From: Escherichia phage Murica | Length of the DNA stretch: 64,000 bases | Sequence record: NC_041871.1 | Reading direction: 5' to 3' (one strand) | In this document: positions 19,028-64,000 of the stretch, in pieces | Position numbering within the stretch: the stretch's first letter is position 1 | Layout of the letters: the number at the start of each line of letters is the position of its first letter | The notes under the pieces: generated by a model | Database searches by the model: none | What the model saw: only the letters and a program-made list of their open reading frames with translations | What the model was told of the DNA's origin: nothing | Made by a program: the position numbers and the translations under genes

Positions 19028-20116
19028 ATGGCTGTATTTAATGCTGAGAACACCGCTCATAAAACTGGTGACTATCCGCTGTTTCTAGGACAGCAAATGG
19101 GTATGTATGACTCTATCAACAAAAAATATCCACAACTGTTTGAACTATACAAAAAACAAAAAGAGCAAGATTGGGCAGAGGATGAAGTGGATTTGTCGCA
19201 ATCTATTTCAGATTTTGTAACATGCTCCAAGTCAACTTATGACGTGATGGTGCAGACCTTGATGTGGCAATGGGAGGCTGATAGCGTTGCGGCAAGATCG
19301 ATCATCTGCCTCTTTTCACCATTCATCACTAATAGTGAGCTTTTCACTCTATTGATGAAACAGTCAGAGATTGAAGTTCTTCACGCACTAACTTACTCAG
19401 AGATTGTTAGACAATGCCTCCCAAATGCCCGTGAGATTATAGAAGAGATTCAGGAAAACCAAAACGTTCTGAGCAGATCTGGCGTTATTGTCAAATACAT
19501 GCAAGAGCTTGAGGTTATTGGTGCAAAATACCGACTGGATCCTTCTAGTGTTGAAGAAGATATTGTGCGGAAATGCATTCTTAGAGCGCTTTTTGCACTT
19601 TTAGCCCTGGAAAGTATTGAGTTTATTGCAAGTTTTGCATGCACTTTCGCAGTAGCTGAACAGGGTATCTTTGTTCAGGTGGCGCAGCTTGTTCAAAAAA
19701 TCATGCTTGACGAAATGCTGCATTCGAAAGGTGATTTTGCCATCATTGATATCCTGCTTAATGATCCCGCATGGGAGAAAAGCTTCCTTGAGATAAAGGG
19801 GGAGTTAAAAGAGATTCTTGATGAAGTACGAACCAAAGAGTACGGTTGGAGTGACTATATTTTCAGCGAAGGAAGAGCGATTATAGGTCTTAACTCACCG
19901 TTGCTTAAAGAATGGGTTGACTATAACTGCTCACCGATTTATGATTACTACGACATCGACAAAGACTTTGTGCCGCCAACAAAGGACCCGCTACCGTTTA
20001 TGCAGGTGTGGATGAAACCTTCATTGCAACAGACGGCAAACCAAGAAATGTCGAACACTGACTACCGCGTCAACACAACTGTTAATGACGCTGAAGAAGA
20101 AATTTGGGAGTTTTAA
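19028..20116 (+). CDS. nrdB: ribonucleotide reductase class Ia beta subunit
   Basis: 362 aa directly downstream of nrdA; ferritin-like helix pattern with acidic C-terminal tail. Confidence 0.9.
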   Translation: MAVFNAENTAHKTGDYPLFLGQQMGMYDSINKKYPQLFELYKKQKEQDWAEDEVDLSQSISDFVTCSKSTYDVMVQTLMWQWEADSVAARSIICLFSPFITNSELFTLLMKQSEIEVLHALTYSEIVRQCLPNAREIIEEIQENQNVLSRSGVIVKYMQELEVIGAKYRLDPSSVEEDIVRKCILRALFALLALESIEFIASFACTFAVAEQGIFVQVAQLVQKIMLDEMLHSKGDFAIIDILLNDPAWEKSFLEIKGELKEILDEVRTKEYGWSDYIFSEGRAIIGLNSPLLKEWVDYNCSPIYDYYDIDKDFVPPTKDPLPFMQVWMKPSLQQTANQEMSNTDYRVNTTVNDAEEEIWEF

Positions 20117-54031: not shown

Positions 54032-54490
54032 TCAACACTTTTTGTACTCTACTACAACCACATCAATATCTGTGGTTGCAAGATTAATTACATCTTCTAC
54101 ATGTTCCCACTTTAGACCGCCAATACCGCATCCAATTTTAGGAATGTAGAACGGCAATGACACACCTTTGAATACCTCGTTGACTCGCTCAAAACCTTTC
54201 ATTATTGAGAAGTATTCAGCATTGGGCCCTGGGTAGAACTGGGTATACAGGTTGATTCCATATACGACCCTGTTCTTGGCAAAATGCTCCCAACAAGAAA
54301 ACATACCCAGCTTGTCCAGATTACCATAGGCAGTCTCTTTGTCGGCTGCCAGTGCTTGAGGGAACTCACGGGCAATATCTTTCGCTATGCCTGCACCCAT
54401 TGTATGAAAGCAGTTACAACCGTGGATCAGGTGACCAGCACCGCTCTTAAAAAGGGAGATTAAATCTCCCGCTACAGTATCAATAATCAC
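54032..54490 (-). CDS. macrodomain protein, TARG1/OARD1-like (ADP-ribose removing)
   Basis: LIHGCNCFHTMGAGIAKDI and IPKIGCGIGGLKWEHVEDVI resemble TARG1 blocks as recalled from memory. Confidence 0.65.
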   Translation of the reverse strand: MIIDTVAGDLISLFKSGAGHLIHGCNCFHTMGAGIAKDIAREFPQALAADKETAYGNLDKLGMFSCWEHFAKNRVVYGINLYTQFYPGPNAEYFSIMKGFERVNEVFKGVSLPFYIPKIGCGIGGLKWEHVEDVINLATTDIDVVVVEYKKC

Positions 54491-54973: not shown

Positions 54974-55171
54974 TTACACAGGAATTGCTTCAAACAGGCC
55001 GTTATCTATACCGTCCTTCAGATAGAGATTATATTCTATGTCGGTATCTGTATAAAGGGCAGCATCCAGCATTCTATCTGTGAGTCCATCCATTGGGTGG
55101 AGAAACCACCACCCACGCCAGTCAAAGTAACAGCCTGGTGCATCTTCTCTTACACGGATTCGATAAATCAT
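54974..55171 (-). CDS. hypothetical protein
   Basis: 65-aa ORF. Confidence 0.35.
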   Translation of the reverse strand: MIYRIRVREDAPGCYFDWRGWWFLHPMDGLTDRMLDAALYTDTDIEYNLYLKDGIDNGLFEAIPV

Positions 55172-55267
55172 GGGCAGTGGCCTCCTGTTAGTTATACATC
55201 CCAGTTTTCTTCGTTCATCACGTCCTCCCGTTCTATGAAGTTATAATTGCACACCTTTCCACCTGTG

Positions 55268-55684
55268 TCAACAGAAAACTTCAACAAACTCTTCCACAGT
55301 TTTAATGTCGTGGGAAAAAGGTTTACGGCTATAACGGGCAATAGCACTATCAACCACCGCCCGGTACTCCAAATCTTCAGAATATTTCATGAAGCATTGC
55401 AGCGTCTCTGGGCAGATAGCTAAATAGCTCCACCACCCTTCTTCAGATTGGTAGTCGAATCCCATACTTTCCAACCATGAAGCATATACTCCTGCACCCT
55501 CAAGCCAGTGAGTATTTTCATCCAGAAACTTGTTAATAGACATGTGAGCTTCTAAGCATTTATCCAGCTCTTTTCCGTTAACCAGCCACGCACTGACCGT
55601 GGCGCATCCAAGGTCTACAGATTGAGTTGACAGGTTGTATTGGTCATAGTTCTCAGGTTTAACAATGATATCTTCTAATGTCAT
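55268..55684 (-). CDS. hypothetical protein
   Basis: 138-aa acidic ORF. Confidence 0.4.
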   Translation of the reverse strand: MTLEDIIVKPENYDQYNLSTQSVDLGCATVSAWLVNGKELDKCLEAHMSINKFLDENTHWLEGAGVYASWLESMGFDYQSEEGWWSYLAICPETLQCFMKYSEDLEYRAVVDSAIARYSRKPFSHDIKTVEEFVEVFC

Positions 55685-55746
55685 TTTTTAGATCTCCTTA
55701 TACAAAAATGCCCCACCCTTTCAGGCAGGGCTATGTTAACTAAATG

Positions 55747-56973
55747 TTAAAATGGGATGTCATCATCAAAGACGTACTGTGCTGGATTCTGATCCATTGG
55801 GTCATCTTCCGCATCATTTACAGGAGGAGCGTCTACAGTGTTTTGCTGTGGAGCTGCTTCCTGTTTGGCAGCCTGAGGTTCTTGATGGTCAGTGGACTCA
55901 GCACCGTTCTTGATCCAATCGTACAACGGCTCAGCTAGATTAGTCAAGACATCTTTTGCTTCTGCAGTAATTGCCACTGCAAAATCATCAACTTTCGTTT
56001 TCTTGTCAATACGGCGACAAGCGTTCAACACCGCATTACCGACACTGGCACCTACTTCATCTTCAGTTCGGTTGGTGGCTTGAGCATACTCTTTCTTAAG
56101 CTCAATGGTGACTACGTGCAGTGTTTTAGCCACGCCCAGTGGGTCGTCTACCTTAAACCCGCGATCCAGGATGATCTGCAACGCATTGATGCTATGCCCC
56201 GTTTCCACACCGATAGGGTCGTAAGAGGATTTACGCTTGCCACCAGAGCCTTGAGTGCCGTTCTCTGCCTTAGGAGGATAGGCCTTGAAACCACTGATAA
56301 TGTTTCCGGTGTCTTTGTCAACAATGGCTGCAACACGACCACCTACCACCAGGTCTTTAAGCTGCTCATCAGTTACAACCATAGCACCTTCGCCAATCTT
56401 GTGGTCATTAACAGTAACCACGTTGCCAACAATCTGAGTCACATCACCATAGATGCGTAAAACGTCCTGATTGGCATTCTGCTGAGGTTTCTGCTTCTGG
56501 CCTTGTGATTGTGCACCTTGTTGCTGTTTTTGCTGCTGAGTCGCTGCTGGAGCCTCTCCTGCACCCAGCTTGACCATCTTAGCCAGTGAGCCTTTGTAAT
56601 AGGTCTTACCGTTATGCTCGTTTGCCTTCAAAGGAATATTTACGATCCATCCCGGCGTTACGGTTTCCCACTTGTCATCAATTTTAACAGAGACAGAGTC
56701 TTGATGACCAGGTTTAAGCAGCTTATCACCCATGCTGATCCAAACTTCTTCACCACCTTGAAGCAGGTTATCAGAGGAATCCAGTTCAGAAATCAGTAAA
56801 GAGATGGTGTGGCTGGATTCAATTTTCTTACCTTGCCACACAGTGGTTTTAATACCTGTTGTAGGATCAGCACCTTTGATAGGCTTGATGCTGACACGTT
56901 TAATCATGCCGTGAGCCAGTAAAACAGTTTCACGCGGATTCATCGGGTTAGCGAATTGTTGAATAACGCTCAT
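55747..56973 (-). CDS. ssb: single-stranded DNA-binding protein with host-type acidic tail
   Basis: C-terminus DDDIPF identical to the enterobacterial SSB tip; Gln-rich linker; extra central domain (408 aa). Confidence 0.6.
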   Translation of the reverse strand: MSVIQQFANPMNPRETVLLAHGMIKRVSIKPIKGADPTTGIKTTVWQGKKIESSHTISLLISELDSSDNLLQGGEEVWISMGDKLLKPGHQDSVSVKIDDKWETVTPGWIVNIPLKANEHNGKTYYKGSLAKMVKLGAGEAPAATQQQKQQQGAQSQGQKQKPQQNANQDVLRIYGDVTQIVGNVVTVNDHKIGEGAMVVTDEQLKDLVVGGRVAAIVDKDTGNIISGFKAYPPKAENGTQGSGGKRKSSYDPIGVETGHSINALQIILDRGFKVDDPLGVAKTLHVVTIELKKEYAQATNRTEDEVGASVGNAVLNACRRIDKKTKVDDFAVAITAEAKDVLTNLAEPLYDWIKNGAESTDHQEPQAAKQEAAPQQNTVDAPPVNDAEDDPMDQNPAQYVFDDDIPF

Positions 56974-57338
56974 TATTTGTCTCCTTGTTCTTCGTTAGTG
57001 TTTGCCGTGTGTGCAAACCCTGCTTGAATTAATTTGTCCTGAACTTGAGCCAACAGCCCCATTGCAAAACTTGTGGTCCCAGAGAGGGCCATCAGCATAT
57101 CTCGTTGTTGAGCTACCCAACCTAAGGCATAGTCCAAACGACGATATTTTTCTTCTTCACGCAGAGCTTGAAATAATTGTTCAGCCTCTGGTTGTTGTGT
57201 GAGCTCCTGAAGTCTTCCCATGAAAGAAGAAAGCACTAGTAGAAGAGACACTTGATCTTTACTTAACCCTAAGAAAAATTCTTGAGGTTGTTCTTGCTCG
57301 TTCATCGCAACCGACGCTTGATCGTTCATTTGTTCCAT
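56973..57338 (-). CDS. hypothetical protein
   Basis: 121-aa ORF; start overlaps the SSB gene. Confidence 0.4.
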   Translation of the reverse strand: MEQMNDQASVAMNEQEQPQEFFLGLSKDQVSLLLVLSSFMGRLQELTQQPEAEQLFQALREEEKYRRLDYALGWVAQQRDMLMALSGTTSFAMGLLAQVQDKLIQAGFAHTANTNEEQGDK

Positions 57339-57421
57339 TATGGAATCTCCGATTTTATTTGAACAACATAGAAGGAGACACTATTTTAGCATCCCCTTCT
57401 GCAAATTACAATAGGTATTTG

Positions 57422-57667
57422 TTAGCCAATCACTTCGAAAGTTCCCCAATTCCCGTCCAGCAGGCAGGTGATCGGATCCCCATCGTCGTCAAAGATTTCA
57501 AAGTTTTCAGCATCCAGGATGTGGCCCTCGAACACAATACTTTCGTCGCCACCACCAGAAATAACAGCGTATTCCTTACCTTGAGTCAAGTTTTGACACC
57601 CTTTGCCACCAAAACCTACTTCAACACAACGTACTTTCTGTCCTGCGCGAGCAACTACTTCAGTCAT
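57422..57667 (-). CDS. hypothetical protein
   Basis: 81-aa Gly-rich ORF. Confidence 0.4.
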   Translation of the reverse strand: MTEVVARAGQKVRCVEVGFGGKGCQNLTQGKEYAVISGGGDESIVFEGHILDAENFEIFDDDGDPITCLLDGNWGTFEVIG

Positions 57668-57684
57668 CTTAAGGTCTCCTGATA

Positions 57685-58005
57685 TTAATCGTCAAGTTCA
57701 AAATAGATTTTAACAGCTTCATCAAAGATTGGAATCCCAATGTTGTTGATAAGCTGCCAAACTACCATATCTTTACCTGGATCTGGGAGAATGTCAACCT
57801 TTCTCCATGCGCTGTATATCCAGTTCGGACCACCTTCTGCACTAACTGGCAGATTTTCACCAGCCTCCTGCAGATACTTATACAGCAAAAGATATTCTGG
57901 ATACTCTAGAACACTGTCCTCTGTAGTATATAGCAGTTCACGGTATACTTTTAAGAACCCTGCTGGGGTAATGTTTTCAGTCTTCATTTGCCGCTTCTCC
58001 TGCAT
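57685..58005 (-). CDS. hypothetical protein
   Basis: 106-aa ORF. Confidence 0.4.
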   Translation of the reverse strand: MQEKRQMKTENITPAGFLKVYRELLYTTEDSVLEYPEYLLLYKYLQEAGENLPVSAEGGPNWIYSAWRKVDILPDPGKDMVVWQLINNIGIPIFDEAVKIYFELDD

Positions 58006-58369
58006 TCATCAGGTCTGCCATAGCGTCACCTACGAAGAGAACAACCACATCGTTGACAGCGTCAGCATCATCTTTATTGACGTTGCTGAATTTAGGACAC
58101 ACCGCAATGATCATATAGACACCGTTACCAACCTGAACTGTCCGTGTGGTGCACATCATGGCGGTATTTGTGCCTTCTTTGAAGGCGAAGCCTTGAAGAC
58201 GCTCCTCTAAAGTGTTACCGGTAGATTTCAGAAGCGCCAGCTCGTCCAAGGCATAGATGATATCTCCGGAAGTTAGTGTTGCCTTTCCATCAGACACCAT
58301 AATAACTCCATCAGCACCGTCAAGCTTAGAGGCTTCAAAGATATCAATATCCCAAATATTTTTCATCAC
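57977..58369 (-). CDS. hypothetical protein
   Basis: 130-aa ORF. Confidence 0.4.
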   Translation of the reverse strand: MMKNIWDIDIFEASKLDGADGVIMVSDGKATLTSGDIIYALDELALLKSTGNTLEERLQGFAFKEGTNTAMMCTTRTVQVGNGVYMIIAVCPKFSNVNKDDADAVNDVVVLFVGDAMADLMNAGEAANED

Positions 58370-58686
58370 GCTTCCTCGTCGTCTAAAGAGTTGAAGATTT
58401 CACCGAAGTATTCTAAGACTTCTAGCTCCCGTGTGGTGCAGAAAACACAGTCACCGTTGTCATCCTCGATAACGGCCTCTTTACCCAGCACATCTACTTC
58501 AAGTTTATCGTTCAACAGGACAGCCCCTGTGTAAACTTTGTCGGCTGTGCAGTCCCGAAAAGCAGAGTCTTTCTCCAGATAGTCTGGCTTAACCTTGGCT
58601 TTAATTCGTTGGTATTGTTTGGTCATTGCTGTGGTCCCCTTTCGTTTTGATAGGGCCATTATATTAGGCTCCATCACTGTTGTCAA
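58366..58686 (-). CDS. hypothetical protein, tandem paralog of ORF 58690
   Basis: Shares SAFRDCTADKVYTGA and DNGDCVFCTTRE blocks with the adjacent ORF. Confidence 0.45.
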   Translation of the reverse strand: MTTVMEPNIMALSKRKGTTAMTKQYQRIKAKVKPDYLEKDSAFRDCTADKVYTGAVLLNDKLEVDVLGKEAVIEDDNGDCVFCTTRELEVLEYFGEIFNSLDDEEA

Positions 58687-58689
58687 GTA

Positions 58690-58944
58690 TTAATGTTCAG
58701 GTTTTACAAAAACTACTTCATTAACAGTGCACCAGACAGAGTCTCCTTCATCATCTTTAAAGGTAAGGCACTGTGCTGAGTTTTCCAGCTCATCGATCTC
58801 TTCTTGTGATAAAGGGGCCCCTTCTTCCAGGAGGGCTTTTACCAGAGGGTTCTCACAAAACTCTGCTTCATAAATTGCACCGACTGTGCAATCTTTAAAA
58901 GCTCGGTCATTTGCAACGCATTCTGACTTCAAAGTAATTTTCAT
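58690..58944 (-). CDS. hypothetical protein, tandem paralog of ORF 58366
   Basis: RAFKDCTVGAIYEA and DEGDSVWCTVNE blocks. Confidence 0.45.
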   Translation of the reverse strand: MKITLKSECVANDRAFKDCTVGAIYEAEFCENPLVKALLEEGAPLSQEEIDELENSAQCLTFKDDEGDSVWCTVNEVVFVKPEH

Positions 58945-59020
58945 CTTAGCAGTCTCCTTAGTTATTTAAAAATCAACACTCTGTTTGTGCGAAGCATCTT
59001 ATATCTAATCTTACTTCTTG

Positions 59021-59419
59021 TCAATGGCTATTTTCAATCAGCCACACAGGGTCTAGGTAAATTTGTTGGCGTGTTGCCCAATGACAAACTTCATTGTACA
59101 TCTGAATCTCTTTGTCAGTCAGTTCACGAATAGGCTCATCTATACCCTCATTTTTGTGGTAATCCCAGTCGGCATCGATTTCCCACAACCATGACTTGTT
59201 GTCACCACGCTTACGCACACAGAAGTCACCGGGACGGCCTGCCAATGCATTTAAGAACTCGTTCTCCGCTCGCTCCTGAAGAATACTAAGGAGCAAAACG
59301 TTGGAGCATGACCGTAAAATATGCTTCAGCTCACAATCATCAATCTCAACTTCAATACGTTGTTTGACTGTGTGGGTACCTTTTACTAACATCCTACCTC
59401 CTCTAAACGAACTCTGCAA
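59021..59419 (-). CDS. hypothetical protein
   Basis: 132-aa ORF. Confidence 0.4.
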   Translation of the reverse strand: MQSSFRGGRMLVKGTHTVKQRIEVEIDDCELKHILRSCSNVLLLSILQERAENEFLNALAGRPGDFCVRKRGDNKSWLWEIDADWDYHKNEGIDEPIRELTDKEIQMYNEVCHWATRQQIYLDPVWLIENSH

Positions 59420-59597
59420 GAGTTGTGTTGTTCACTGCACCGCAGTAAATGGAGTATCCCAGCCCATTAGAGTGCAGAAACCACGGCGTGCCGAAATTAT
59501 CTTTCACGTAGACATCACCGTTGTTTGTAAAGGGCCAATATTCTTCCCCAAGGGTAAAATACCTATTCATACCTTCAGCAAGATACTTTACTTTCAT
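59403..59597 (-). CDS. hypothetical protein
   Basis: 64-aa ORF. Confidence 0.35.
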   Translation of the reverse strand: MKVKYLAEGMNRYFTLGEEYWPFTNNGDVYVKDNFGTPWFLHSNGLGYSIYCGAVNNTTLAEFV

Positions 59598-59821
59598 AGG
59601 TCCTCTTCAACAACTACAAACTTGGCAAGCAAAGTGGTTCCGTAGATATGATACTCACCGTTTGCCAGGTGAGAGATATACCAGGCAACCCCTTCCTCGT
59701 CTTTAATCATTTTGTTTGCACGAGCTTTATCGTAATAAACCTCGTAGGTCTTTCCTTCTTTAAAGAAGGACAGGTCTGTCATCTTTTCTTCTACAAAAGT
59801 AGCTTTAACCAAAGTTGTCAT
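59594..59821 (-). CDS. hypothetical protein
   Basis: 75-aa ORF. Confidence 0.4.
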   Translation of the reverse strand: MTTLVKATFVEEKMTDLSFFKEGKTYEVYYDKARANKMIKDEEGVAWYISHLANGEYHIYGTTLLAKFVVVEEDL

Positions 59822-60192
59822 TGATCGGTCTCCTTCTTGTTAAGTCTGAATACTGCAATAATAGCATTCCCAAGGTGCAGTGTCAAATCATTTCCAAGAT
59901 ACCACAACATTCCACGGTCATCTTTAATGAAAGGGTAACAATCTGGTGCCTTCCAGACATTGTACACTTTCCCAACCTGAAAGAAATCAGGCCCTGTTGG
60001 GATTTTGGTGCCAGGCCACACTTGAGATACCTGAACACACTCCACCTGCATAATAACAGGGATAGTCATAGATGTAAATGTTTTTGTTGGTTCTACTACC
60101 ATAAAAATCCCCTCTTTGCTCAACAGCACCTCCCTGTGCTGATAGTTTACATTAGTGACAATCACCCCAGTTCCGACCACACAAGTATTCAC
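59818..60192 (-). CDS. hypothetical protein
   Basis: 124-aa ORF directly downstream of the polymerase gene. Confidence 0.4.
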   Translation of the reverse strand: MNTCVVGTGVIVTNVNYQHREVLLSKEGIFMVVEPTKTFTSMTIPVIMQVECVQVSQVWPGTKIPTGPDFFQVGKVYNVWKAPDCYPFIKDDRGMLWYLGNDLTLHLGNAIIAVFRLNKKETDQ

Positions 60193-62929
60193 CTGTGATC
60201 TGGAATGGAACGCCCATCATTTTAGAAGCTTGCCAGAAGCAATGCACCACCATTTCACCCACAGGGCTCCAGATAAGTTCAAGCTTTCCGTCATCGTTCA
60301 GGATAGGATCGTACACCGTGTTTCCGTCTCTGTCAACCACTTCGTTTCCGTTTTCATCCTTGCGTGCCTTTTTGTACTTATGACCGTCAAACACATGAAG
60401 TTTGGCCTCCTGCTCTGCCTTAAATGCTTCCAATTCTTCAATTGTGTCGAAGGTGTACACAGTCTTATACTTAGGCGTGTCAGGGACCTGAAGTTGGTAC
60501 TCATCATGGTAATAAATAATACGACGAACACCTTCATCGTACCACCCACGCTTCACCATTTGGTGGTGCATGAGTATCCCAACTAAGTCACACAACGATG
60601 CACCACCATTTTGTTGGTATGCATTAAGTAAAGAGTGTTTAGATCGGGTCCAGATAGCATGACCATCAAAAGAGTAGATAAACTTCTTACCCGTTGCTTC
60701 CCAGAATTTCTCCAGATCCTCTTTACGCCCTTTAAGACCAGGGTTGGCATCCCAAAGCGCATCGATTACCCTTTGCCCCAACTCTGGGGAGATATCCAGC
60801 ATGTCTGCAACTTTATCTTTTTGTGCCCCATACATAACCCCGTACGTGATAGGTTTACCGTCGTTACGAGACACCTCTCTACCTGCTACTTTCGTATATG
60901 CCTCAGCATTGTTTTGGTGGGCATCCCCGTTACTTACAACATCGTAATACAGGCCGTTGTCGAACTCAAAGGCACCCCAAGCCCCGATAAGCTGCTCTAA
61001 GTTGGACCCGTCAATACCGATCTCAAAGTATCCTGGAGGAACACCCCACAGACTGCGCATCTCTTTACCCATAACCACTTTAGGAGATGGTTTAGGCATG
61101 TTTGCACAAATACTGTGTTTCTGTCGGGAAGTGTTTGTTAATCCAGAACTTTTAGCAGGAAGCTTATGGTCAATCTTCAAACGTGGGTGATTAAGAAGAC
61201 CAGTATCAACCTTATCCTCCTTGATTGGATCAAGGACCGATCTGCGGTTTCGCAATGATAACCACAAGACAATATCTTTAGCCATCTCTCCGTTCAATTT
61301 TTCAAGATTTGGGCATAGGTGTCCAAACGTATCTTTCAGCTGCGGAGAAGTAATAAGTGCTCTGGCTTTTCTACGTATTTTCCCGAATACTTCCTTTTTA
61401 ATCCTTTCGGAGTTAGGAAAGCTTCGGAACTTGTGCACGGTTGTCTGAAACTTAGCATCAGTTTTGTTCCAGAAGTTGATAATCAGGTCACAATACTCTG
61501 ACTCTAAAAGCTCGTCCATGTATGCATATACTCGTGCATCAACATCTGCATCAGGTAGAGCTTTCTTCTTGCTGTCTTTAGTTACATCCTTAGTTCTCCA
61601 CATTGTCGGAAGCCAACCAGCACTGATCAGGTATCGCTTAATGTCGTCCTGATTGCTGATTTTCATAGGTATCTTGCAGTCCGGCATTCGCTTCTGCTGT
61701 AGATCACTTATTGCCTGATCCATCAGCTCTTTAGGTAAAGGTTGTGGTGTGGAAGTGCCCTTAATATAGCCTCTCAAGAAATCAGCCATCTTATCAGGGT
61801 CTTTGCAGCCCATCTCTTCACACCATTTTATCCCCATCTTGCTGACATCTCCTGTGGAGGTAAATGCTCGCTTAGGCGGGGCTTTGAACTCCAAAGCACT
61901 CATGTCCACAGGATAGCCAAGCTTATCTTTTAACCATTTCCAACCATTGTTGGAGATTGTCCCATCTTGGTTAAACGGCTTTTCAGGGAACTTGGGCCGC
62001 TGAGACATTGACAGCTCTTTTAAAGGAAGTTGAGGTTCAACACGATCAGCGATTTCTTTCATCCACGCATCGCAACGGTCACGTAAAGCAATAGCTCCAT
62101 CTATGTCGAAGTATACACCCTGACGGGCCTGCAGCTCCATCAGGAAGTGCTGCAGCATGCCTCGGCGTAATGCGTTCTTCCAGGTGATTTTCTTGAACCC
62201 TTTCGGCTTCTCTTTGGCTGGATCGTACATAAAGTTCTGCATGTCAGATTTGCCGTAGAATACACCTTTTGATTCCGCTACCAGCTCTTTCCAGAGCAGC
62301 TCCTGGATGATAACGTCCTCGAATACACGATCCACATACTTCCACAACGGAAGATCGCGCCAGTCATCAATTTGAACTTTCTGGTTACCAAGGGCGTAGC
62401 CCCATGCCATAAGGCCGTGAGGACCAACAGGCTGCATTTTCTTAGTAACCGGGTTGAATACAGAGTCCGGACAACCTTTTGGTAAAGGGCGATCAGGCCA
62501 CAAGATTCTGCTCATCGCCAACGTATCAAACAGGTTAACCTGGTGGTCGTTGATAGTCCCCATGCATTTAGGATCACGGAACATATCAAAATGAATACCG
62601 GATAATCTTTCCATCAGCATAAAGTCATAACTGTAGCAGTTATGGCAGTTCAAAGCTGTTGGTGACCAGTCGGAATTGCCTGTAAGCCAACCTTCCAACT
62701 CCGAAAAATCTGCTATGCGAACTTCAAAATCTTTATGAAGAGTTTTCTTTGCCAGAATAAAGTTCTTAGCCTTCTCTATATCCTCTTCGGAGTAGTGTGT
62801 GCGGTCATTTAGAGGAAGGAACAGCATAAAACGGTTCTTATTCAGCTCTTTAAACAGGCCGCAGTGATAATAAAGATCTGGATCTTCCAGCAAACCGGAT
62901 GACTCAAAGTCGAACGACCACATGCTCAT
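60152..62929 (-). CDS. DNA polymerase, family A, with 3'-5' proofreading exonuclease
   Basis: 925 aa; exo motif SFDFESSG near N-terminus; motif B RNDGKPITYGVMYGA; motif C YYHDEYQ. Confidence 0.9.
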   Translation of the reverse strand: MSMWSFDFESSGLLEDPDLYYHCGLFKELNKNRFMLFLPLNDRTHYSEEDIEKAKNFILAKKTLHKDFEVRIADFSELEGWLTGNSDWSPTALNCHNCYSYDFMLMERLSGIHFDMFRDPKCMGTINDHQVNLFDTLAMSRILWPDRPLPKGCPDSVFNPVTKKMQPVGPHGLMAWGYALGNQKVQIDDWRDLPLWKYVDRVFEDVIIQELLWKELVAESKGVFYGKSDMQNFMYDPAKEKPKGFKKITWKNALRRGMLQHFLMELQARQGVYFDIDGAIALRDRCDAWMKEIADRVEPQLPLKELSMSQRPKFPEKPFNQDGTISNNGWKWLKDKLGYPVDMSALEFKAPPKRAFTSTGDVSKMGIKWCEEMGCKDPDKMADFLRGYIKGTSTPQPLPKELMDQAISDLQQKRMPDCKIPMKISNQDDIKRYLISAGWLPTMWRTKDVTKDSKKKALPDADVDARVYAYMDELLESEYCDLIINFWNKTDAKFQTTVHKFRSFPNSERIKKEVFGKIRRKARALITSPQLKDTFGHLCPNLEKLNGEMAKDIVLWLSLRNRRSVLDPIKEDKVDTGLLNHPRLKIDHKLPAKSSGLTNTSRQKHSICANMPKPSPKVVMGKEMRSLWGVPPGYFEIGIDGSNLEQLIGAWGAFEFDNGLYYDVVSNGDAHQNNAEAYTKVAGREVSRNDGKPITYGVMYGAQKDKVADMLDISPELGQRVIDALWDANPGLKGRKEDLEKFWEATGKKFIYSFDGHAIWTRSKHSLLNAYQQNGGASLCDLVGILMHHQMVKRGWYDEGVRRIIYYHDEYQLQVPDTPKYKTVYTFDTIEELEAFKAEQEAKLHVFDGHKYKKARKDENGNEVVDRDGNTVYDPILNDDGKLELIWSPVGEMVVHCFWQASKMMGVPFQITGEYLCGRNWGDCH

Positions 62930-62987
62930 ATACAGTTCTCCTTAAAGGGGAGGCGGTTGTACTACCCCTCCCACTCTTTGTTAAACA

Positions 62988-64000
62988 TTAAAAAGGTGTT
63001 TCATCATCCTCAAAACCAGGGACCGGATCAGAGGATGGATCATCGTATTGGAGGTCTTCCTGCGTGTCAATAGGCTTGACAGTGGGTGTTACAACCTTAT
63101 CAGCCACAACCTTGCCCATAGGTGTTTCTACAACTGCATGCTCCTGATCCTCAAACATAGCCTGAGGTCTCCAAACAACCTCCCCACCTTCTCCGTCTGT
63201 AAACATCTGCATTTCTTTGTCCCAGTACCAATTACTGGCATCATGGAACTTACCTGTATGCGGATCCATAACTAAAGTGTCAGCAATACCTAAAGTTTTT
63301 GCTGGACGGTTTTTAAGACCTACCAGACGGACACGTCCACGAGAACGATCCACCATTTCTTCGGCCTCGACACCTATGACTACCCAACTCAACTGTTCAA
63401 GCCCAGCCGATCCTCGCAAATTCTCTTTTCGCACAGGATACCAGAAAGGTAATGGGTTACCATCCTTGTCCTTAGGGGGCACAATCTCTGTACGTTTGAG
63501 GTGAGCGATCACCAAGATAAACACGTTAAACTGCTTACAAAACGCAGCCAGTTGGGTCATAGCCATGTCCAGTTCTTTTCGCTCATCCTTAACATTAAGC
63601 CCTGAAATTACCATGGACAGGTGATCCAGCACAATATAACGACAATGGTACAGGCAAACCATTTGCTTAAGCTTGGTAATCAACTCGTCCACTGGAATAG
63701 ACCCGAAATGTTTGAACACTTTGATTTTTCCAGCTTTTGCCCATGATTGGTGAATCTCTGCGTGTTCTTGATCAGTTAAAAACTGGCTAGGATCTTCAAC
63801 AAACTCTTTAACATCAAACCCTAACTGGTTTGCATACAAGGAGTTAATTGCTTCCTCTGGGTCCTCCTCAAGATGAATCATGCATAGACGATCATCCTCT
63901 TCATAGTCATCGGCCTTCGGGCATGTCGGGTCCATTAGGTATCTTGCAATACAGTGTTCCAGTTTTTTAGCCACGGTTGTTTTACCGCCGCCTGATGGAC
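62988..64000 (-). CDS. DnaB-like replicative helicase, partial (N-terminus beyond window end)
   Basis: Reading frame continues upstream of ATG 63974 through Walker A SGGGKTT to the window edge; Walker B IVLDHLS; acidic C-terminus ending DDETPF. Confidence 0.75.
   Translation of the reverse strand, partial: PSGGGKTTVAKKLEHCIARYLMDPTCPKADDYEEDDRLCMIHLEEDPEEAINSLYANQLGFDVKEFVEDPSQFLTDQEHAEIHQSWAKAGKIKVFKHFGSIPVDELITKLKQMVCLYHCRYIVLDHLSMVISGLNVKDERKELDMAMTQLAAFCKQFNVFILVIAHLKRTEIVPPKDKDGNPLPFWYPVRKENLRGSAGLEQLSWVVIGVEAEEMVDRSRGRVRLVGLKNRPAKTLGIADTLVMDPHTGKFHDASNWYWDKEMQMFTDGEGGEVVWRPQAMFEDQEHAVVETPMGKVVADKVVTPTVKPIDTQEDLQYDDPSSDPVPGFEDDETPF

Follow-up and report, generated by a model that had tools for sequence, protein, structure and literature searches.

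Escherichia phage Murica encodes two replication proteins, a 408-amino-acid (aa) protein resembling single-strand-DNA-binding proteins (SSBs) and a primase-helicase of the T7 gp4 type, whose acidic tails end in the same two residues, Pro-Phe (PF). Both genes lie in the 64,000-nucleotide stretch of sequence record NC_041871.1 analyzed here, which we call the window and to which coordinates refer. Our best overall explanation is that the tails are flexible tethers carrying docking motifs, which the phage SSB and the primase-helicase would present at the replication fork; we hold this explanation at about even strength. We are highly confident that the tips function as docking motifs, and have little confidence in any named partner, which would be assigned by analogy.

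Positions 55000-64000 of the window share 97-99% identity with over 100 rV5-like coliphages (genus Vequintavirus), among them nomo, pangalan, JLBYU08, and the BASEL phages RudolfGeigy/Bas52 and DrSchubert, and the genes of this analysis are all on the minus strand, within the replication module. The translated open reading frame (ORF) of the 408-aa protein ends in ...NPAQYVFDDDIPF with TAA directly after it, and the helicase ORF, which runs from 62988 to >64000 and is open at the window edge, ends in ...PVPGFEDDETPF and then TAA. The tip peptides are PAQYVFDDDIPF for the SSB-like protein and PVPGFEDDETPF for the primase-helicase. The C-terminal hexapeptide of Escherichia coli SSB (SSB-Ct) is DDDIPF (PMC5872125; PMC5928155). 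A preliminary description of this DNA had reported that the SSB-like protein ends in DDDIPF, as the enterobacterial SSB does, and the helicase in DDETPF. Both statements hold: the last seven residues of the SSB-like protein, FDDDIPF, are identical to the bacterial ones, and the helicase closes with FEDDETPF followed by the stop codon.

Of the 289 ORFs in the window that start with ATG and have at least 40 aa, only these two end in PF; in the complete RudolfGeigy genome (137,380 bp, 97.6% identical), they are again alone in this among 551 ORFs. In homologues of the 408-aa protein down to 29% identity, D403, P407, and F408 are invariant, while the ~40 preceding residues are hypervariable. Given that only these two ORFs end in PF in both sequences, and given the invariance of P407, F408, and D403, chance is excluded as the reason for PF on both tails.

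An AlphaFold2 prediction made on the family alignment defines five parts of the 408-aa protein (Table 1): an N-terminal beta-rich domain, a Gln-rich linker, a small central beta domain, a four-helix bundle, and a disordered acidic tail that as a whole spans residues 360-408. The N-terminal domain has an OB fold whose nearest structures are SSB, PriB, and RPA. The extra central domain claimed in the preliminary description is present as a confidently predicted small beta domain (residues ~165-235) and is missing in the short members of the family. The helical domain carries the motifs D..G...GH..N and VGN.VLNAC, and D252, G255, G259, H260, and N263 are invariant across alignments of this region.

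By sequence, the protein stands apart from the known SSB families. Its match to PHROG 4477 ("unknown function") covers residues 1-408 (E=7.5e-173), and in Pfam neither the protein nor any of 19 homologues gave a match at E<=5. The sequence matched neither the bacterial-type SSB profile (PF00436) nor PF21265, the profile of T7 gp2.5-type domains. An hhalign comparison of the family with a canonical phage SSB, that of HK75, aligned just the tail (the last 30 columns), and the comparison of the family alignment with T7 gp2.5 returned a probability of 0.5%; neither placed the OB domain in a known sequence family. Searching the PDB by sequence, once with the whole protein and once with its final 35 residues, gave no match, and a search of BFVD returned only uncharacterized orthologs.

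As an unbiased test of the tip, we built a profile from the helical domain alone, excluding the tail, and searched 1.84 billion cluster representatives with it. The search retrieved 134 clusters (50% identity), mostly of 260-300 aa (the short form), with about a dozen of 345-420 aa (the long form). PF is the C terminus in 95 of these clusters, and it is followed by one residue in 7 and by a 15-residue extension in 2; 8 more end in P-W, so that 112 of the 134 carry a P-F or P-W tip. Acidic residues followed by [DVEA]-F end another 8, and about 9, either fragments or tail-less forms, break off within the helical domain or shortly beyond it. The rest, about 5, comprise one short fragment with an F end, two other endings, and P0204, a repeat-protein false positive that we rejected as a family member. 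The acidic tail and its [ILV]-P-[FW] tip thus characterize the SSB-like family throughout, and the family itself appears to be a large, unannotated, non-canonical phage SSB-like family in which the tip is nearly universal. Since 112 of 134 clusters carry the tip, it was inherited and is not a recent imitation of enterobacterial SSB. This result is one of three that qualify the "tail mimicry" of the preliminary description; the other two, the unmatched helicase tails of distant relatives and the extension after the Phe in close ones, are given below.

The assignment of the 408-aa protein to the SSBs draws on a chimeric family member, a recurrent gene order, and the annotation of the near-identical RudolfGeigy genome, in which no second SSB is annotated. 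The chimera, P0299 (L035:609-1592), has a T7 gp2.5-type ssDNA-binding domain (PF21265, 51 bits against a cut-off of 27), after which come the four-helix domain of the family (hhalign probability 97%, E=6e-11, 112 columns) and the end ...DDDEEIPF. Its composition shows that the helix-plus-tail module is joined to different OB domains. In the distant phages phi92, L036, and L037, the genes again follow one another as primase-helicase, family A polymerase, some small ORFs, and SSB-like gene. Because of this evidence, the 408-aa protein would be the phage's own single-strand-DNA-binding protein, a role proposed by analogy and included in the explanation to which we give even weight.

The window ORF is the positional ortholog of Bas52_0087 (QXV84166.1) of RudolfGeigy, with 403 of 408 residues identical and the same FDDDIPF end. 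Bas52_0087 triggers the defense system DRT10/UG17 and is needed for DRT10 activation, and escape mutants carry D252V or Y351C in it (bioRxiv 10.64898/2026.04.29.721553, 30 April 2026). The same preprint describes an SSB-like AlphaFold architecture with two OB folds, the second being the central beta domain, and a disordered C terminus; it likens FDDDIPF to the E. coli SSB C-tip, reports that the dosage of host SbcB (exonuclease I, ExoI) modulates DRT10 restriction of Bas52, offers an interplay with SbcB as a hypothesis, and derives oligomerization from the positions of the escape mutants. In the literature searched, it was the only item that we found on Bas52 together with SSB. The SSB-like half of our finding, namely, the host-like tip and the host-interactor hypothesis, is already public there, whereas the preprint is silent on the helicase tail, on how widely the tip occurs in the family, on the private helical domain as the family signature, and on the extended alleles described below. 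In our alignments, the escape site D252 is one of the invariant residues of the helical-domain region.

The part of the primase-helicase that lies in the window matches DnaB_C (30.2 bits, cut-off 27), AAA_25 (37.5 bits), and PHROG 239 "DNA primase/helicase" (E=3.7e-79). A 692-aa ortholog (99% identical) aligns with T7 gp4 by BLASTP over residues 88-605 (E=2e-21), including the TOPRIM motif EGE.D; the TOPRIM primase fused N-terminally to the helicase is seen in this ortholog, that part of the gene being outside the window. When we surveyed the tails of the 120 best relatives, at least 108 had F or Y as the last residue, in most cases behind acidic residues, and ...DF was the commonest ending. 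Acidic-aromatic tails are therefore general among gp4-like helicases, and the likeness to T7-type tails drawn in the preliminary description is borne out. The ...D-x-P-F tip is found only in the closest relatives (P0057-P0065 and, with the extension, KpS8, KE23, and P0066). PF on a long helicase tail is accordingly a variant of a known family trait, specific to the Vequintavirinae clade. FEDDETPF of the helicase is closer to the bacterial FDDDIPF than to the D-T-D-F of T7, and we found no report of a PF-type tip on this helicase in the literature.

The two tails match in Vequintavirus and in a sister group at 64% identity, where the SSB-like protein ends in DDDIPF, DDSIPF, or EDVPF and the helicase in DDETPF or DEDCPF. 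In phi92-like phages, L036, and L037, the SSB-like tip is DDDIPF and the helicases end in ...AGSY, ...NKDF, and ...MNYG, respectively; in L025, the SSB-like end ...ETIPF is paired with a helicase end ...VEEY. The contig of P0299 is too short to reach the helicase gene. The SSB-like tip is constant and the helicase tail variable, and matched tips are a clade feature, not a requirement of the module. The absence of co-variation between helicase and SSB-like tails weakens the case for an obligatory shared docking site. Taken as a whole, the interpretation given in the preliminary description is partly supported.

The C-terminal peptide of E. coli SSB is a hub for ExoI, chi, PriA, RecQ, DnaG, and others. 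The 408-aa protein resembles that SSB in its last seven residues and in bearing them on a long disordered linker after an OB-fold domain; it differs in having no SSB-family sequence match and in its additional beta domain and four-helix bundle. In T7, the acidic tails of gp4 and gp2.5 bind basic patches on the gp5 polymerase (PMC12339929, PMC8472574). Murica shares with T7 a gp4-homologous helicase, a family A polymerase, and an acidic run plus C-terminal Phe on both the helicase and the SSB-type protein. However, its tips are ...[IT]PF and those of T7 ...D[TG]DF, its helicase tail is ~60 residues longer, the front basic patch of the polymerase appears only partly kept, and the SSB-like protein is not gp2.5-like in sequence, though its relative P0299 contains a gp2.5-type OB domain. 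A third precedent is the SSB of phage HK620, whose tail ends in NDYPPF and needs its last six residues to recruit the phage annealase Sak4 onto SSB-coated ssDNA (PMC5928155). That protein is likewise a phage SSB with a PF end, there recruiting a phage-encoded partner, but it is a distant homolog of bacterial SSB.

By analogy with these systems, the 408-aa protein would coat phage ssDNA through its OB domain and would probably oligomerize through its helical domain, as the preprint proposes for Bas52_0087. Its tip would be read by proteins with an SSB-Ct pocket, host ExoI among them, which would be either recruited or competed for; the influence of SbcB dosage on DRT10 fits ExoI as a partner. 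Replication and repair enzymes of the phage are also possible readers. As in T7, the tail of the helicase would keep the family A polymerase tethered to the hexamer, and in this clade the helicase tip could reach the same partners as the SSB-like protein; the partners, like their sharing, are modeled on the known systems.

A set of extended tips bears on this explanation. JES2013 and about 25 further records have an insert of 0.65 kb directly after the Phe codon of the SSB-like gene, in place of the stop codon. It adds APVGLQYGKSRIYAL to the SSB-like protein, so that the capped tip reads ...DDIPFAPVGLQYGKSRIYAL, and it brings an overlapping "endonuclease VII" gene (PHROG 1035). In about 52 records the junction is uninterrupted, as it is in the window; thus, ~26 of ~78 close-relative records are extended. 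The 15-residue extension, with the consensus A-P-[IV]-G-L-Q-Y-x-x-H-x-I-[YH]-x-[LI], is found after ...DD[DE][IT]PF in the canonical SSBs of the unrelated phages HK75, ECH1, and Vibrio K288, and the same extension occurs on the primase-helicases of KpS8, KE23, and P0066 as well as on SSB-like proteins. Neither extension nor cassette is present at window position 55747 or at the 3' end of the window helicase gene. A literature search for the extension motif found no paper.

The endonuclease genes overlap the 3' end of the canonical SSB gene in ECH1, of the SSB-like gene in JES2013, and of the primase-helicase gene in KE23. Their three products belong to related PHROGs and have in common a zinc-finger-like N-terminal domain, CxxC...FYKH...NKCKEC. 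In HK75, KpS8, and K288, the extension occurs without an endonuclease. Because the extension codons differ synonymously between copies, selection seems to act on the peptide itself. We rejected the idea that an out-of-frame 5' end of the endonuclease gene accounts for the extension on its own, given these synonymous differences, the three phages that have no endonuclease, and the varying position within the extension at which the endonuclease gene starts. Altogether, these results suggest that SSBs, SSB-like proteins, and these helicases have ends that evolution has treated as equivalent, which would fit a common function.

Several observations weigh against tips that dock at the fork. Canonical SSB-Ct pockets bind the terminal carboxylate, and by analogy the 15 residues that follow the SSB-like Phe in ~26 of the ~78 close-relative records should prevent such binding; since these isolated phages carry a non-terminal Phe, a free C-terminal Phe or carboxylate is not indispensable for phage growth. 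The helicase ends GSY, KDF, and NYG of relatives with the same module (phi92-like, L036, and L037) are unmatched to the SSB-like tip, and both DRT10 escape mutations, D252V and Y351C, lie outside the tail, in the helical domain. The polymerase surface expected from T7 also appears poorly preserved. The front basic patch of T7 gp5 consists of K587, K589, R590, and R591 (PMC12339929). These residues align with G-K-K-F of the window polymerase: where T7 has KWKRRWIK (in ...VKWKRRWIKGLDG...), the window has ...GKKFIYSFDG..., which keeps two basic residues in an alignment that is weak, at 25% identity.

We weighed docking motifs at the fork against rival readings. In a purely phage-internal coordination of the T7 kind, the tails would bind to basic surfaces on the polymerase, and each might also contact the protein that bears the other; no host protein would be engaged, and the likeness to host SSB would reflect descent or convergence. 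The phage has genes for a polymerase, a primase-helicase, a ligase, and exonucleases of its own, its gp4-like helicase has a family-typical tail, the module order is conserved, and T7 itself is a precedent. We nonetheless consider this reading unlikely: seven consecutive residues match the bacterial SSB-Ct, I/V/L-P-F is kept across the family clusters whereas T7-type tails need only an acidic run and F, the T7 basic patch appears poorly conserved, and the dosage of host SbcB affects DRT10 restriction of Bas52. The tails could also act mainly in cis, folding onto their own DNA-binding surface and tuning ssDNA affinity or cooperativity, as described for E. coli SSB, T7 gp2.5, and T4 gp32, with recruitment secondary. 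In favor of this reading, they are long, acidic, and disordered; the gp2.5 tail of T7 is reported to occupy its own DNA-binding groove, and its removal to raise ssDNA affinity (PMC12339929), and tail sequestration has been discussed for free SSB (PMC5928155). Shielding, however, needs no invariant Pro-Phe, and P and F are the most conserved tail positions while the placement of charge varies; nor does it account for the same tip on a hexameric helicase. We therefore regard a mainly cis role as quite unlikely.

The helicase tip could instead have little function and owe its presence to mobile DNA: a homing-endonuclease cassette that sits after PF codons would have moved from an SSB-type gene to the 3' end of the helicase gene and co-converted the tip. 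The related endonuclease genes of ECH1, JES2013, and KE23, which stand at the 3' ends of their target genes after ...PF and the same extension, fit such a transfer, as does the restriction of the PF tip with a long tail to this helicase clade. Yet the window has no cassette, and PF is kept in all close helicase relatives (54-96% identity), those free of cassettes included, which argues for purifying selection on the helicase PF after any transfer. A tip of this origin with little function appears very unlikely to us, and docking motifs at the fork remain our preferred explanation.

A more speculative proposal, to which we assign only a small probability, would join the tips and their caps. Here, the ...PF tip with its optional cap would be a portable C-terminal module, common to canonical phage SSBs, the SSB-like family, and primase-helicases, at whose coding DNA small homing endonucleases of HNH/EndoVII-like type sit and which they perhaps target. 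The cap, selected as a peptide, would switch the tip between a free state, open to the host interactome, and a masked or retargeted one, possibly to change partners or to evade defenses that sense SSB; the helicase tip may have been acquired with a cassette.

Table 1. Features of the Murica window and loci of the C-terminal extension in other phages
Feature	Coordinates	Strand	Remarks
SSB-like gene, 408 aa	55747..56973	-	Bas52_0087 ortholog; PHROG 4477
N-terminal beta-rich domain, residues 1-138	56560..56973	-	OB fold, presumed ssDNA-binding; AlphaFold2
Gln-rich disordered linker, residues 141-168	56470..56553	-	pLDDT <50; length variable across alignment
Small central beta domain, residues 171-232	56278..56463	-	Confident prediction; long-form members only
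Four-helix bundle, residues 253-355	55909..56217	-	Family-defining; pLDDT above 90
Disordered acidic Pro/Gln-rich tail linker, residues 360-401	55771..55896	-	pLDDT <50; hypervariable
Tip F-D-D-D-I-P-F	55750..55770	-	Stop codon 55747-55749
Acidic helical protein, 121 aa	56973..57338	-	PHROG 7310, unknown function; stop shares one base with SSB-like start codon
Family A (T7-like) DNA polymerase, 925 aa	60152..62929	-	Uninterrupted; 25% identity to T7 gp5, palm and fingers
Primase-helicase, C-terminal 336 residues	62988..64000	-	Gene runs past window edge; orthologs 692 aa
Post-core C-terminal helicase tail	62991..63251	-	~87 residues vs 26 in T7 gp4; T7 gp4 alignment ends at ~605/692
Helicase tip F-E-D-D-E-T-P-F	62991..63014	-	Stop codon 62988-62990
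Extension, JES2013	L002:3029-3667		
Extension, ECH1	L030:1522-1969		
Extension, KE23	L032:2525-3005		
Extension, KpS8	L031:2519-2566		
Extension, HK75	L003:2525-2572		

Tails of a similar kind occur on other proteins. In the window, the beta subunit of a class I ribonucleotide reductase (19028-20116, plus strand) ends in ...DAEEEIWEF, a third acidic-aromatic C terminus and the only other tail in the genome with an aromatic end after at least three acidic residues. The tail of the R2 subunit classically binds R1, and this one is presumably such an R1-binding tail. In phi92-like metagenomic phages, a ~200-aa protein is encoded between the polymerase and SSB-like genes (L020:8866-9549, L023:8959-9552); it has a GGAVRDW nucleotidyltransferase-like motif and ends in ...DTDDDIPW or ...LEEDDIPW, making it a third protein type with an SSB-Ct-like tip. 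Its phi92 ortholog, gp158, is without the tip, and a homolog is absent from the window.

The polymerase gene of Bas52, JLBYU08, and others holds a group I intron (RF00028, 64.7 bits) between ...IIYYH and DEYQ... (L004:5557-5792, minus strand, in RudolfGeigy), a site that corresponds to ~60500 in the window. Just upstream of the SSB-like gene, a small ORF of 100-132 aa is found in 12 of 13 loci, with none in L025 and none of this size in L019. It often has an N-terminal F/Y-L-G-L motif, and its product may be a partner protein; the label "putative SSB" that one record gives it is unsupported. In L036, the ORF immediately upstream of the SSB-like gene (L036:9837-10001), which overlaps it by one base, matches Pfam Phage_T7_Gp5_9; gp5.9 is the RecBCD inhibitor of T7. 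The minus-strand gene at 54032-54490, some 1.3 kb downstream of the SSB-like gene, encodes a macro-domain protein (Pfam Macro; PHROG 335 "phosphatase"). The host labels of 16 GenBank MG0656xx records look doubtful: the records are named "Campylobacter phage" (C12, C5, C15, A12a, and others), yet they share 97-99% identity with rV5-like phages of E. coli.

Acidic aromatic tails are textbook replisome tethers, and the host-like tip of the SSB-like protein is in the preprint, so that the gain is incremental. What is new is a definition of the SSB-like family and its tip that covers the family as a whole, the uncoupling of the two tips across the module, the chimera with a gp2.5-type OB domain, and the capped alleles with their endonuclease cassettes, of which the last is the lead most worth following. 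The definition of the family by 134 clusters should be of use for annotation and for the choice of constructs. If the tips work as we propose, a helicase hexamer would present six SSB-type docking peptides and the SSB-like protein many more, giving this phage a means of pulling host ssDNA-processing enzymes to, or away from, its forks. Such docking would also provide a mechanistic account of how the ortholog of the 408-aa protein triggers DRT10 together with host ExoI.

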